Positions 308-6,484 are shown, counted from the stretch's first letter. The stretch: 36,503 bases of DNA from a virus (IMGVR_UViG_2713896908_000012:1-36503), one strand, 5' to 3'. Notes: generated by a model from the letters alone, not told the origin. Numbers and translations are program-made.

Positions 308-1006
308 TTACTGAGAAAGTTTGTTAATGGAAAGGAAGCCGCCAAAGTTGCCGACGTTATTGCGAAACTTACAGCCGCTCAGGCATTTGCTGCATTTATC
401 CCGCGTGATATCGGACGTCGGCTGGTCATATTCATCCGCGACAGCCGGACCGTTATAACCGCACTCATCACCGCGATAGGTCCAGGTGCAGGTGTTGGCC
501 AGCATGGTGCGCCCCGGAAAAACAGCGCCGTCCGTTTCCGTCGGTGTGGAGAGCACAAAGGAGGCACTGACCGCGCTCAGTTCGCTGCACTGCTCGATGC
601 GCCAGCGGCTGATCGCCTCCTGCTCCGGGTCTGCGTCGATGTTTCCGTTGACGAAGTTCACCGCATCCAGAAAACGGGCGTAAACCTTACGCCTGACCAC
701 CGTTCCGCCGACCAGACTCTGCAAATCTTCCACCATCCCGGTGATCAGGCCGTGAAGGTTAGACACAGTCAGTGTCGGACGGGCAGCACTACCCTTGCCG
801 TTCAGTTCAAATCCCGTCCCCTGAATTGGATAGGCCTGATACTGCCGCCCCTGCCAGGTGACTGGTTCGCCTTTTTCGTTCTGCTCATTACAGAAAAAAT
901 AACGCTCTCCGCCGACCTCTGTCAGATCGACTTCCCAGAGCACGACCAGCGCGGATTGCTCCGCTTTTGTACACTCATTCAGTGTTTCCTGCCGGATATC
1001 CTGCAT
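308..1006 (-). CDS. L: Minor tail protein L
   Basis: 232-aa ORF, same length as lambda gpL; conserved C-terminal cysteine cluster (CSKCLSGCKF); located between M and K as in lambda. Confidence 0.9.
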   Translation of the reverse strand: MQDIRQETLNECTKAEQSALVVLWEVDLTEVGGERYFFCNEQNEKGEPVTWQGRQYQAYPIQGTGFELNGKGSAARPTLTVSNLHGLITGMVEDLQSLVGGTVVRRKVYARFLDAVNFVNGNIDADPEQEAISRWRIEQCSELSAVSASFVLSTPTETDGAVFPGRTMLANTCTWTYRGDECGYNGPAVADEYDQPTSDITRDKCSKCLSGCKFRNNVGNFGGFLSINKLSQ

Positions 1007-1338
1007 CAGATCACCACTTCATCAAACTGACACGAAAAATCGGTATAGGTGATATGTTCTGTAGCTGACCACGTTCGACACACCACTCTGATTTTTCTGT
1101 TAACACCCGGTGGACGCCAAAAAAAAGATTTATAGCCTTCATGCCGTGCTAAAAAATTTTCGAATGAATCACGTTCATTCGCCTCAACCTTGAAATCACA
1201 GGTGAAAACACGTAGAGAATGATTAAGTCCATTTGGACTTCGTTGCTCATAACCATCGCCAAATCTTACAGTTTTTATCGATGGTTTATTTTCTGTTTTC
1301 ATTCCATCCTCTGGTAACCAGTGGAATTCTTCAGCCAC
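1006..1338 (-). CDS. M: Minor tail protein M
   Basis: 110-aa ORF immediately downstream of the tape measure gene with stop/start overlap; size and position match lambda gpM. Confidence 0.8.
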
Positions 1339-4300
1339 TTAACATTCCTCCATCACGTCGCATATTTAACAGAGTGCCCTGCACTCGCTGATCAACCATT
1401 CCCATAAGTGTTCTAATTGCCTGAGGGCCAATCTCTCCATTCTGTCCGTCATTTTGAATAGTGATTTGGTATACAGGGGCATAGATAATATCTCCGCCTC
1501 CATTACCACTTTTACTATTAATAGCTCTGACACCAAGAGAACCATCGGAAGTTCGTGTTAATGGCATAATAGCTTCCGGTCCAGACTCACCAAAAACACC
1601 AGCTCCTTTTGCAAAAGCAAAAAATTGCGGGGAATCATAAATACCGTTTGAATATGTACTCAATGATGGAGACTCATAAATACCGCCCTTTGCATTAGGA
1701 ATAAATTTACTAACAGCACTTCCGATAGTTCCTAAAATTCCCCCAGAAGAACTGTTGCTAATGCTGTCGAAAATCCCGGTAATTGAAGCCTTTAATGCTA
1801 TTCTGCTAAGATCTGAAATCACGGAGGTAGCGAAAGAACGAAAATTTGCCTTACCTGTCGTGACAAAATCACCAAGCGCATCTGTCATCCCATCAAACAT
1901 CTGAGTCGTGGTTGATTTTATCTGCCCGCTGATATCCTTAGTGTTATCCAACCAGTTATTGAATCCTTGGGACGCCCCACTTACCCAGTCTCCTGCCTGA
2001 ATATCGAGCTGCTCATTTTTCTGCCTGATAATTTCTTTTTCCCGCTCCACAGCATCATTCAGGGCCTGTATTTTTTCCTGAAAAACACGTTCAGACATTC
2101 CACGAGATTTATCCGCATAGTCACGTTCAAGTTGCAGACGCCGGTTGTTATATTCACGTTCAATCCGCAGTAATTCCTGCTGACGTTGCTGATTTTTATC
2201 GCCAAGTCCATAACCAGCGATCTGAATGTCATACCCCTGCTGATGATTATCAATAGAAGCCTGCAATGAACTACGCCATGTGGCTATTTCGGCTGACTCC
2301 TTGATTAGCCTGTTATTTTTTTCAATCGCAACATTTTTCTCCATCAACGCGGTTATTTCTTCCCGGTGTAAGAGAAGCGATTTCTGATCCTTAGTTAATT
2401 TTGATGTCGGACGAGATTCAAGATCGACTATTTGCTGGCGCCACTTAACCAGTTCCTGCTCAGAGGAACTTAATTTAACTGTCAATTCAGCTTGTGAACT
2501 TAGTAACGCATTCTGTTGATTCAGATGGTCAATCATTCGTTGGGCGGCATCATCTGAATAATTCCGTGTTTTTGGTGATTTTGGATCTTTATATAATTCA
2601 TTAATGCGAGAAATATTATTATTATATTGCTCTTCACTAATAGCCCCTGCATCCAAAAACTTCTTCTGCTGCCTGATTGCTTTACTTCTTTTTTCTGCAT
2701 TAGTCAGATACTGTTGGTTAACACGATCGGCCTCCTGTTGAGTCTGAATTCGTTCTTGCTCAGCTTTACTTGCTGCAGAAATGGCCCCAGTAATATCTGC
2801 CTGAGCCGCCATAGTTAGCTGAAGAATGTTTAACTCTTGCTCAAGCTCTTTTCGACGTGAGGCAAAAACAGTTTTTCCACCGACAGCGTTATCAATCCAA
2901 TCAAGCTCCTTGCGGATTTGAGTGATACGCTCATTTCCACCAGACACACGACCAACATCAAGCATTGCATCCCAAGCTTTTTTCGCTGTACCAGCTAAAC
3001 CATCCCAGGCTTTTTCAAGAAGCCCAAGATTTTGCTGGATTTCTGATGTACGCTGCTGTAAAGCCTGAGAATAAACGTCAGAAGCTACCCTAGCCGCCTC
3101 CTGCTGGTTCCCTTCATCCTGTAGCGCCTTAATCTGGTTATAAGTCGCCAGTGTCAGAAAATGGTACTGATCATTAAGTTTTGATATGGCACTGACAGGA
3201 TCCTTTGCAATTTCATTGAAATTATTAACCAGTTGATCGGTCGATATTCCAGTTAATTCGCCCGTTTTTACTATCGCTGTCGTCACCTGCTCCAGCGAAC
3301 TGCTCGCGACCTTTCCTGAACGCACAAGCTGGTTTAATACTGCCGCCGCAGCGCCAGTTGTCGAATCAGCAGCATCCCCGGCACGTTGAGATATATCAGC
3401 TAATTGCCCGCTGGTTGTCCCCAACTGATTTCCGGTAAGAATAAGAGATTTATTAAATTCGTCCTGCTCCTGAGAGCCTTTATAGTAAGCTAGCCCCAAG
3501 GCGCCAACGGCTGCTGCGGCCAGGGTAAAAGGATTAATTAATCCCAGCACATAAGAACCAACACCTTTGATCGCCGGGCCAATCCCACCGAACATATCTT
3601 TTAGCTGGCCGCCCTGCTGCATTAACACCATAAATGGCGACTGACCAGTGGACAACCCAACAACAATATCCGTCATTTGTGCAGGCAACATGCGCATAGC
3701 AAAAGCCGTTTGTTTTGCTGACATACCGGTTTTGCTGAGTTGCGATTGAGTAGCCTCAAGCTCACTCCGCATAGCATGGAGTTTTCCTGAAAGCTCCTCA
3801 TACATTTCAGGAGAAAGCATCCCATTGGCTTTTGCTTCGCTGAGTTGCTTTTGCTGCTCTGTCAGGCGGTTAAAAGCTGTTCCAACAGGATCGAGTTGAG
3901 CAATCAGACGTTGCAAAGCAGCAACTTGTTCATCATGCGCTTTTGCTGCTTCTCGTTCTGCCTGAGCCTCTCCTGTTAGCTCTCGCCGCGTTTCCTGTAT
4001 TTTTCGGCTGTAATTATCAAACTGAGAGCCATTTATTTTCCCGGAAAAAAGTGCAGCATTAAGTTCATCCTGCTGTTGATCAAGATTTCTTAGCGCCGCA
4101 GCCAGAGGGTCGATCTTGTCCAGCATTCTTTGAAAGGCCTGAGCCTGCGCTTCCTGCTGGGCGGCAGCAAGTTTTCCGGCCTTCTCGGCCTCTCTCTGCG
4201 CTTGCGCAACCCCGCTCAATTCCTCTGTGGTTTCATTAAGTTTACGGGCAAGAAATTCATATTCTTCTTTATCAATAAGCCCTTTATCGAAATATTTCTT

Positions 4301-4540
4301 TAATTCAGAATAGCGTCGACCGACAGTATCAATTGCGGCACCAACTGGATCAATAGCTGCTTTTAATTTTGCGAGCGCGTTCTTCTCGTCTTCTGTTGCC
4401 TTAGTCACTTTCCCTGCGCTATTTGCAGCAGTTTCCCCGGCCTGCGTCATTTTGACTAATGATGAGGTCAGATTATCAGCATTATTTTTCGCTCCAGAGC
4501 TATCAATAATTATTGCAAGACGTGAGGTCTGCTCTGCCAT
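1331..4540 (-). CDS. H: Tail tape measure protein
   Basis: 1069-aa ORF, coiled-coil-rich (A/Q/E/K-rich) N-terminal two thirds, Gly-rich hydrophobic segment; position between GT and M. AGGAG ribosome-binding site (4552-4556, minus sense) precedes the ATG at 4540. Confidence 0.9.
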
Positions 4541-4560
4541 TTATTAAAACTCCTGACAAC

Positions 4561-4584
4561 AAAAAAACCCACCGAAGTGGGTTT
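4561..4584 (-). terminator. Intrinsic terminator-like hairpin between GT and tape measure genes
   Basis: Stem CCCAC/GTGGG with 4-nt loop (4568-4581); on the minus strand it is followed by a 7-nt U-run (complement of A-run 4561-4567). Confidence 0.5.
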
Positions 4585-4704
4585 CAGGCGACATAATAGT
4601 AGATATAGCGATTACGAGGCCACGCAATGCTTTTCTCCAGGAGCATCATCGATTTAATTAAAGACACTATCACATCTCTGTAACAGAGTGTACGTAATTA
4701 ACAA

Positions 4705-5462
4705 CTACACACACTGCTCCTGAAAATACTGGTCATCCAGTGCAAAGATCACTGCTTCAAATTCATCGCGCTCAATCAATACCGGATGAGTGGCTAAATA
4801 TTCATTTATCTCTGACAGAGATAAAGGCAAAGGCACCCCAGCCATTCCAGCATAACGCCGGGCACGGGATATCACCGAATAGGCGTACAACAATTCCCTA
4901 ATAACCGGGTCTATTTCTGGCTCCGGGAGCGGCGGCAACCTGAGCTTTTCTCGTTTCCACCTTGCCTTTTCACCCTTTTCTCCCCCGAACTCCGATATCC
5001 ACCGCTGGGCGGCAATGGCTTTTTTATCGTATCCTGCTTTTGCTGCTCTTTTCCCTGGGCGATTCTGGCGGCTTCTGCAAGGATTTGCCAGTACAACTCT
5101 GGATTCTGCTTGAGCAGCGCAGCACCTCTTTCTGGTGTATATTCCAGCGCGACCTCAACACCATCTACCAGCTCTCCAACCCCTTTCCAGTCTTTCAGCA
5201 GATAACGAGCGGCGTTATCAATGAGTAAATCATCAACAGAGTCCACCTCGACGACCTTTGCAATATCAAACGCCTTCGTTCCGACATGCAAACTGGCATC
5301 CATTTTCTCAATGTGGCGACGGATTAATGCATTACGGGAGCGATACTGATCATTATCGCTGCTTGCCACCAACAGTTGTAACCCAGCAATAGGTTCTAAG
5401 TCTTTCATTGGCGTAAACCAGCGTTCTCCACCGATGATAATTTTCTGTTCAAGAATAAACAT
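4705..5462 (-). CDS. Tail assembly chaperone fusion (GT analogue) made by programmed -1 ribosomal frameshift at A_AAA_AAG (5025..5019)
   Basis: The -1 frame is open from the slippery heptamer to the stop at 4705 and reads ...KKAIAAQRWISEFGGEKGEKARWKREKLRLPPLPEPEIDPVIRELL..., continuous with the 77-aa ORF 4705..4938. Geometry matches the conserved G/GT frameshift upstream of tape measure genes. Confidence 0.6.
4911..5462 (-). CDS. Tail assembly chaperone (lambda G analogue), zero-frame product
   Basis: 183-aa ORF directly upstream of the tape measure gene; contains an in-frame A_AAA_AAG heptamer (minus strand, 5025..5019); GAGG ribosome-binding site 9 nt upstream of the ATG. Confidence 0.7.
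   Translation of the reverse strand: MFILEQKIIIGGERWFTPMKDLEPIAGLQLLVASSDNDQYRSRNALIRRHIEKMDASLHVGTKAFDIAKVVEVDSVDDLLIDNAARYLLKDWKGVGELVDGVEVALEYTPERGAALLKQNPELYWQILAEAARIAQGKEQQKQDTIKKPLPPSGGYRSSGEKRVKRQGGNEKSSGCRRSRSQK
5019..5025 (-). promoter_or_regulatory. Slippery heptanucleotide A_AAA_AAG for -1 frameshifting (coordinates given high to low because the site is on the minus strand)
   Basis: Minus-strand codons ATA AAA AAG CCA lie in the G reading frame; plus strand shows cTTTTTTat at 5019-5027. Confidence 0.6.
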
Positions 5463-5521
5463 CTATAACCTCATTCAAAACGCCCCCTGTTGCGCAATAT
5501 CACAGGGGGAATAACGGAAAA

Positions 5522-6484
5522 TCAACTAATCGACTCAGCACTGGCTTTTGCAATCACTGCAGCCGGGGAAGCTTTTTTTCTGGTGATAGTTGGCGCTTCG
5601 TCAGCAGCGGTAATGCTCAACTGAACCTGGATAATATCGGTATTACCGCCGTCAGGCCATTCACCTGATATCTGAACTTTAGGAAAACTGAAAGTGTATT
5701 CCCCCTCACCATTCGAAAGCGTGAAATTGAACGGAACAGTCTCCCCTGTCAGCGTTTTACTCCATATTTTCCACGCAGCTTTAGACCATGAAAGCGTCAC
5801 AGTACCGGACGGTGTGAAGGTTGTCGGAATATTAGCTCCGGCATAAGGAGAACCAGTCCCGACACAACGCTGGGTCTGAAGTTTGTTATCGAACTGGATA
5901 TCAAAGCTGTCGATACAAAAACCGTTACCTCCGGCAACACCATTCAGACTTACAGCTGAAACTTCCTTAAACGAATAACGTAACTTTCCTGCACTATCTA
6001 CAGGCTCGCCTTTGATAAAATTCGTATCATCGGCCTTTGATTCCCAGTCCAGCCCGGCAAAAGTGACTGTCGCAGTAATATCACCGTCGTTAGGGATCTG
6101 CATTTTCCACAATCCAACCTGTGCCCCCCTGACGATAGAGGCAATTCCCACATCTGACGCATATGTTGCCAGAGAAAATGTTATTCGCTCATTCCCCATA
6201 GTCAGAGAATCTCCTGACCATTCCGCGCCGAAACAGGATGCAAGGAAATCATCATGTTGGCCCCAGCGAAATTTGGTACCAACATCACCGCCGACATCCA
6301 CAGTGCCAGGCGTCGCCCCCTGAGCCATACGAGAACCACCGATCTCATTATTTTCGCCTTTATTCTGGGTTGGTTTTACTCCCCAGCTTGTGCGCTTTAA
6401 TAAACTCCAGTCACCACTAGCTGGCGTGGTGCCTGCAATTGTCTCCCGGATAAATGCCGAGATAACCTTTGCACCTGAACTCAC
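5522..6484 (-). CDS. Major tail (tube) protein with C-terminal Ig-like domain
   Basis: 320-aa ORF upstream of the G/GT chaperones; Ser/Thr/Gly-rich beta-type C-terminal region; GTG start at 6484 with AGGAGG 6 nt upstream. Confidence 0.7.
   Translation of the reverse strand: MSSGAKVISAFIRETIAGTTPASGDWSLLKRTSWGVKPTQNKGENNEIGGSRMAQGATPGTVDVGGDVGTKFRWGQHDDFLASCFGAEWSGDSLTMGNERITFSLATYASDVGIASIVRGAQVGLWKMQIPNDGDITATVTFAGLDWESKADDTNFIKGEPVDSAGKLRYSFKEVSAVSLNGVAGGNGFCIDSFDIQFDNKLQTQRCVGTGSPYAGANIPTTFTPSGTVTLSWSKAAWKIWSKTLTGETVPFNFTLSNGEGEYTFSFPKVQISGEWPDGGNTDIIQVQLSITAADEAPTITRKKASPAAVIAKASAESIS

Follow-up and report, generated by a model that had tools for sequence, protein, structure and literature searches.

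A probable programmed -1 ribosomal frameshift in the ydaY tail assembly chaperone pair of a Rac-like Escherichia coli siphovirus prophage

The stretch of viral DNA analysed here, a contig of 36,503 nucleotides referred to below as the window, very probably carries a programmed -1 ribosomal frameshift in the tail-assembly-chaperone pair of a Rac-like E. coli siphovirus prophage; we put the probability of this reading at roughly 0.9. The slippery heptamer A_AAA_AAG is located at 5019..5025 on the minus strand, close to the end of a gene homologous to ydaY, and the frame reached by slippage continues into a segment which resembles the T part of the lambda gpG/gpGT chaperones. Judged from sequence comparison, ydaY of E. 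coli Rac-type prophages (Pfam Phage_YdaY) appears to be a G-type tail assembly chaperone, and the small 'hypothetical protein' which follows it appears to be the T extension, which ribosomes would enter by shifting into the -1 frame at A_AAA_AAG.

Over the chaperone region, the window and the E. coli MEI003 chromosome share 98.9% identity. Searches against Rfam recovered a full-length RalA sRNA, which acts as antitoxin to the Rac toxin RalR, at 34769..34947 (minus strand, 202.8 bits); at 22126..22278 (minus strand, 119.3 bits) they recovered a sok antitoxin RNA of the hok/sok type. Both are toxin-antitoxin RNAs of prophages and support a Rac-like origin of the window. The window is thus a Rac-like prophage whose coat gene is of the P22 type and whose flexible tail module resembles that of lambda. 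Sequences similar to ydaY were found in 1074 of 5426 complete E. coli genomes. The remnant of this region in the Rac prophage of K-12 is a direct homolog, with approximately 94% DNA identity over the retained part, where G is represented by ydaY and the first part of the tape measure gene by ynaA. In K-12, however, ydaY is truncated at its 5' end and ynaA is a tape measure pseudogene, while the window holds the full tail module.

Every gene in this part of the window lies on the minus strand, in the order tube, G, T (in the -1 frame) and tape measure. The tail tube (major tail) gene, encoding 320 aa at 5522..6484 (minus strand), is placed directly upstream of the chaperone pair and was recognised by Pfam PF18906 Phage_tube_2 (E 1.4e-28) and by PHROG 290 (E 6e-109); its counterpart in MEI003 is annotated as 'phage tail tube protein'. 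It is followed by the G-like tail assembly chaperone ORF, the ydaY homolog, which comprises 183 aa in the zero frame at 4911..5462 (minus strand), from an ATG at 5462 to a terminating TAG at 4913..4911. The T-like segment in the -1 frame was placed at 4705..5025 (minus strand) by translation and profile matches, and no long zero-frame ORF was found between the 183-aa ORF and the tape measure gene. The latter encodes 1069 aa at 1331..4540 (minus strand), downstream of the chaperone pair, and matched Pfam TMP_2 (E 7e-81), Tape_meas_lam_C and TMP_4, as well as PHROG 24 (E 0).

Some observations on the surroundings of the pair are given here in their own right. A start four codons earlier than ours is often annotated in relatives (MRLWMFIL..., a 153-aa form with 697 cluster members). 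In the window, this upstream ATG (5463..5474, minus strand) is closed by an in-frame TAG, in the order ATG AGG TTA TAG ATG, and a Shine-Dalgarno sequence GAGG can be read from the sequence at 5472..5469 (minus strand), 6 nt 5' of the ATG at 5462. For these two reasons the ATG at 5462 is likely the true start for the YdaY family. Terminator-like hairpins with T-runs flank the chaperone pair at 4555..4585 and 5477..5509, both on the minus strand. The first, GAAACCCAC-TTCG-GTGGGTTTT with a T-run, is situated inside the 165 nt that separate the stop of T from the first codon of the tape measure gene. The second, CCCCCTGT / ACAGGGGG followed by CGTTTT, comes just 3' of the stop of the tube gene; it was read directly from the sequence, its 11-nt loop exceeding the reach of the hairpin scanner. 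Hairpins bracketing the pair in this way may tune relative expression in the late operon. The interval separating T from the tape measure gene looks like a slot into which accessory genes insert. A Salmonella relative has a gene for an Ail/Lom outer-membrane protein there (L015, 2514..3074), a Klebsiella phage has additional ORFs including a membrane protein (L008, 1504..1979), and Acinetobacter phages have DUF4258 together with a helix-turn-helix gene (L013, 1481..1799); the window (4541..4704) has just the 165 nt with the hairpin.

The original prediction placed A_AAA_AAG in the zero frame of the 183-aa ORF, and its coordinates, strand and phase all proved correct. AAAAAAG occurs at gene offset 437 in phase 2, giving codons 146-148 as ATA AAA AAG, followed by CC, which is the phase that fits tandem -1 slippage. 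The -1 frame had also been described as open from the heptamer to a stop at 4705, and we found 106 open codons from 5025 until the TAG at 4707..4705. Joining G residues 1-148 to 104 residues of the -1 frame gives a predicted GT fusion of 252 aa (4705..5462, minus strand), in agreement with the size of about 250 aa expected earlier. The heptamer by itself is not significant. The window contains 21 copies of AAAAAAG, nine of them on the minus strand, against 12.65 expected from shuffles, and only one shuffle in 100 attained 21 copies, so that the motif is somewhat over-represented in the window as a whole. The case is carried by context and conservation. In the majority allele, which is described below, both open frames overlap for only 34 nt, and the one in-phase heptamer of the form XXXYYYZ within this overlap is A_AAA_AAG. 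A second in-phase heptamer, G_GGA_AAA, was noted 30 nt upstream at 5055..5049 and was rejected as a functional site, because it is rare among relatives and a -1-frame stop intervenes: among the 15 loci compared it is present only in the window, in MEI003 and in one Citrobacter locus, and at its position most relatives have GGT or GGC, with a -1-frame stop before the true site.

Both parts of the pair belong to one family of tail assembly chaperones according to the profile searches. Of the 258 positions of PHROG 313 ('Tail assembly chaperone'), the G-like ORF aligned to 21-165 (E 2.2e-47) and the -1 segment to 180-246; the -1 segment matched PHROG 1189 (E 1.2e-35) as well. When the fusion was constructed, it gave one continuous match to PHROG 313, residues 6-249 aligning to profile positions 21-246 of 258 (E 3.4e-49). 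The zero-frame tail gave no match when compared with PHROG. The -1 segment also reached Pfam PF23812 Phage_TAC_18 with E 3e-4, at 21.2 bits and thus under the 27-bit cut-off. Homologs of the G part carry Pfam PF27119 Phage_YdaY and are named ydaY in RefSeq E. coli genomes; the G part itself had no matching model in the copy of Pfam searched, nor in NCBIfam, and a sequence search of the PDB found no relative. G chaperones are described as having a spiral helical fold (Pell et al., 2013, as cited in PMC5313236). An AlphaFold2 model of G from a 12-sequence alignment had a mean pLDDT of 51.2, which is too low for a fold search.

Comparison with other phages was most informative when the fusion was used as a tblastn query against phage genomes, a search far more productive than a scan of contigs with the single protein, which yielded 4 loci. 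Matches in two pieces were obtained in phages of E. coli, Salmonella, Klebsiella, Erwinia, Pseudomonas and Acinetobacter. The second piece lay in the -1 frame relative to the first in 14 of 14 related loci, covering six host genera and identities down to approximately 28-40%; the frame pairs found in the window and these 14 loci, 1/3, 2/1 and 3/2, all correspond to -1. The heptamer A_AAA_AAG was identical and in phase in all 12 enterobacterial sequences, a set which comprised E. coli, Shigella, Salmonella, three Citrobacter, Klebsiella, a siphovirus from bat faeces and a metagenome contig. The codon before the heptamer was ATA or GTA in these sequences, its last base always being A, and synonymous variation in the adjacent Lys, Gly and Gln codons surrounded an invariant heptamer.

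The distribution of substitutions pointed in the same direction. Of the 1280 pairwise differences counted in the 150 nt before the heptamer, 856 fell on third positions of the zero frame. In the 105 nt downstream, third positions of the -1 frame accounted for 592 of 957 pairwise differences and those of the zero frame for 208. Purifying selection thus appears to change frame at the heptamer. Together with the gene order, the profile matches, the frame relation and the invariance of the heptamer, this frame switch bears out the earlier suggestion of a G/GT arrangement upstream of the tape measure gene.

More distant homologs, with 28-62% identity, in Pseudomonas phages Aurca01 and Cruim01, Acinetobacter phage TRS1 and Erwinia phage Gungnir39 had the same 0/-1 relation and a homologous junction; they differ from the window in having other slip motifs, and they are annotated as two genes without slippage. 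In Erwinia phage Gungnir39 (L010, about 1080..1100) the junction reads GCA AAG TAA, with A_AAG abutting the stop. In phiPSA1-like phages of Pseudomonas (L011, about 430..445) it is G_GAA_AAG, and in the Acinetobacter Vieuvirus phages (L013, 897..903) it is G_GGA_AAG, the lambda heptamer. The slippery sequence therefore seems to turn over by lineage while its position stays fixed.

The zero frame had been predicted to run on past the slip site with a basic tail. This tail is indeed present, as 35 residues after AAG (PLPPSGGYRSSGEKRVKRQGGNEKSSGCRRSRSQK) in which Lys, Arg, Gly and Ser are abundant; with its stop it occupies 4911..5018 (minus strand) and amounts to an out-of-frame reading of the beginning of the T segment. 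The tail was also called unusual, and here the prediction needs to be qualified, since what we found is a minority allele with a lost stop codon and not a designed feature. In phages SPF_0923 and vB_EcoS-666R9 and in the Shigella, Citrobacter and Klebsiella relatives the sequence reads AAG CCA TAG (or CCT TAG), and G encoded by this TAG allele terminates in ...KKP at 149 or 160 aa. In the window and in MEI003, TTG (5013..5015, minus strand, from the alignment and the listing of junctions) takes the place of the zero-frame TAG of most relatives, two codons past the slip site, which makes the zero frame 34 codons longer. A scan of IMG/VR for the exact motif returned 75 contigs, 69 of them with TAG and six with TTG, and the 106-codon T frame was kept in all six of the latter. 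At an identity of at least 95%, the TTG allele occurred in about 4 of the 1074 complete E. coli genomes. In further lineages the position of the stop codon is occupied by TCG, resulting in a 155-aa form with the end KKPSKRKSG, and independent long forms of 183 and 181 aa were found in a Salmonella prophage and a metagenome contig, with heptamer and T frame intact. As the tail overlaps the start of T and shows no third-position bias in the zero frame, we interpret it as a by-product of the TAG-to-TTG stop loss which is not under selection and is apparently tolerated.

A related explanation is that the locus is decaying, i.e., that the stop loss marks a defective prophage in which the ancestral frameshift has become functionless in this genome. 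In favour of this view, PGAP labels the near-identical gene of MEI003 (L003, 3152..3508; identity to the window 98.9%) a pseudogene ('incomplete; missing C-terminus'), few of the viral contigs and complete genomes counted above have the TTG allele, and the K-12 Rac copy of the region is truncated. The pseudogene call is likely due to the stop loss, through which the product departs from the YdaY model. Against decay, the heptamer, the 106-codon T frame, the tube gene and the full-length tape measure gene are intact in the window, the T frame persists in every TTG contig, and run-on forms with intact T frames exist in the Salmonella prophage and the metagenome contig at 78-85% identity. We therefore regard decay as unlikely. 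It is very unlikely, in our estimate, that the run-on allele is a functional variant, in which G would coat the tape measure protein in an altered manner or the balance of G to GT would be shifted. Long-tail G was seen in at least three diverged lineages, namely the window prophage, a Salmonella Brandenburg prophage (85% identity) and a metagenome contig (78%). If the run-on form were functional, it would constitute a natural experiment on the stoichiometry rule of lambda. The natural TAG, TCG and TTG alleles could be used for asking whether the C-terminus of G matters.

A separate observation concerns the allele P0001, found in two independent E. coli assemblies (L017, 1501..2223; L018, 913..1635). 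It lacks 37 nt between GCAGAAGCAG direct repeats that lie immediately 5' of the heptamer, and this deletion joins G and T in frame into a 240-aa protein. Prophages with this allele would consequently produce GT alone and no G, and by analogy with the lambda rule they should be tail-defective.

It is highly improbable that G and T are two independent genes, with T translated from an internal start of its own (the TTG at 4938, or the GTG used in relatives) and the heptamer present by chance. Public records do list 'YdaY' and a separate 61-aa 'hypothetical protein', and the heptamer is frequent in the window with its 21 copies. The GTG start annotated in relatives, however, is GTT in the window, and from the heptamer to the TTG at 4938 the -1 frame contains no ATG, GTG or TTG; that TTG comes approximately 29 codons on and lacks a Shine-Dalgarno sequence. 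The -1 peptide KKA[IL][AE]AQ[RK]W[LI].EF.GE.GEKA.W.R.KL.LPP.PEPEID is conserved from the heptamer on, that is, for about 29 codons before the first possible start, and the nucleotide differences there are located mainly on third positions of the -1 frame. The invariance of the heptamer in 12 sequences and the continuity of the fusion on one chaperone profile likewise speak against independent genes.

Transcriptional slippage is equally hard to credit. RNA polymerase would drop one A in the run of six at the junction, and the frame would change in the mRNA instead of on the ribosome; assemblies P0120 and P0004 have one-base changes nearby, which are more likely sequencing or assembly errors. 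Efficient slippage by bacterial polymerases requires homopolymer runs of about 8-9 or more, but the run here is only 6 A, the Erwinia and Pseudomonas homologs have 3-4 A at the junction, and the conserved phase of the heptamer matters for ribosomal slippage only. The junction motifs of the Erwinia, Pseudomonas and Acinetobacter relatives fit re-pairing of tRNAs, not homopolymer slippage.

A programmed ribosomal frameshift may be assisted by stimulatory elements, and a search for a downstream structure had been suggested as a check of the original prediction. Such a structure did not emerge: the downstream sequence folds no better than shuffles, with z of +0.43 for 44 nt and +0.58 for 89 nt, and a consensus fold of 10 relatives reached just -3.7 kcal/mol with 6 pairs and no conserved structure. 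Two individual candidates were considered. A small hairpin CCGCC/GGUGG, 6 nt downstream, was dropped, being missing in the Citrobacter and Klebsiella relatives. For AGGA approximately 6 nt upstream no claim is made as a Shine-Dalgarno-like stimulator; it is absent in the Flyfo siphovirus. The heptamer is identical to that of dnaX (tau/gamma). In dnaX, a Shine-Dalgarno-like element about 10 nt upstream and a downstream stem-loop act together with it, and the efficiency is about 50%. The locus in the window differs from dnaX in having no significant or conserved downstream structure, and its AGGA lies at about 6 nt and is not universal. Given the lack of structure and the spacing and non-universality of AGGA, the efficiency of frameshifting is not predictable. 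The window reads AAG CC at the slip site, and the single tRNA-Lys of E. coli pairs better with AAA than with AAG. This one tRNA decodes A_AAA_AAG in E. coli, and the heptamer is the most shift-prone of those tested in that organism (PMC5009743).

The programmed frameshift that we favour would proceed as follows. The majority of ribosomes would read the ydaY homolog in the zero frame and release a short G-type chaperone. A minority would slip back by one base at A_AAA_AAG, where two lysine tRNAs would re-pair from AAA-AAG to AAA-AAA, and would proceed in the -1 frame to produce the 252-aa G-T fusion. Going by lambda gpG/gpGT, coating of the tape measure protein would fall to the G part and recruitment of the tail tube protein to the T part, and both G and GT would be expected to be absent from the virion. 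In the window allele, the abundant short product would bear the 35-residue basic tail in place of the ...KKP end. Slippage is probably infrequent and would depend for the most part on the heptamer itself, as it is accompanied by no conserved stimulatory structure. A low frequency fits the need for G in large excess over GT; in lambda the ratio of G to GT is about 30:1 (PMC5009743). We infer the slippage itself, its frequency and the binding roles of the G and T parts.

The closest functional model is the pair of lambda chaperones gpG and gpGT (Levin, Hendrix and Casjens, 1993; Xu, Hendrix and Duda, 2004, 2013, 2014; as summarised in PMC5009743). The likeness extends to the gene order, which in lambda is tube (V), G, T (in the -1 frame) and tape measure (H), to a heptamer of the form X_XXY_YYZ which has the same phase and is located towards the 3' end of G, and to a T without a start of its own. 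There are also differences: the lambda heptamer is G_GGA_AAG and that of the window A_AAA_AAG, the zero-frame stop comes 5 codons past the site in lambda and 1 codon past it in the majority allele here, and the window allele has lost this nearby stop, so that its G carries the 35-residue tail. Similarity to lambda GT was undetectable at the level of sequence (best BLASTP E 28). By its frame relation, its position, its heptamer, the lack of a start for T and its family, the locus in the window nevertheless appears to be a genuine G/GT pair.

The GenBank and RefSeq records which we inspected present the pair as two separate genes in which the slippage is not encoded, and ydaY is named just 'protein YdaY'. 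In the literature library searched, no paper was found that connects ydaY with a chaperone function or with frameshifting. Frameshifting of the G/GT type is a conserved feature of long-tailed phages (PMC5009743). The main value of the present finding lies in annotation: no concept is changed by it, and the ydaY pair of Rac-type prophages would be a newly recognised member of this conserved G/GT frameshift.
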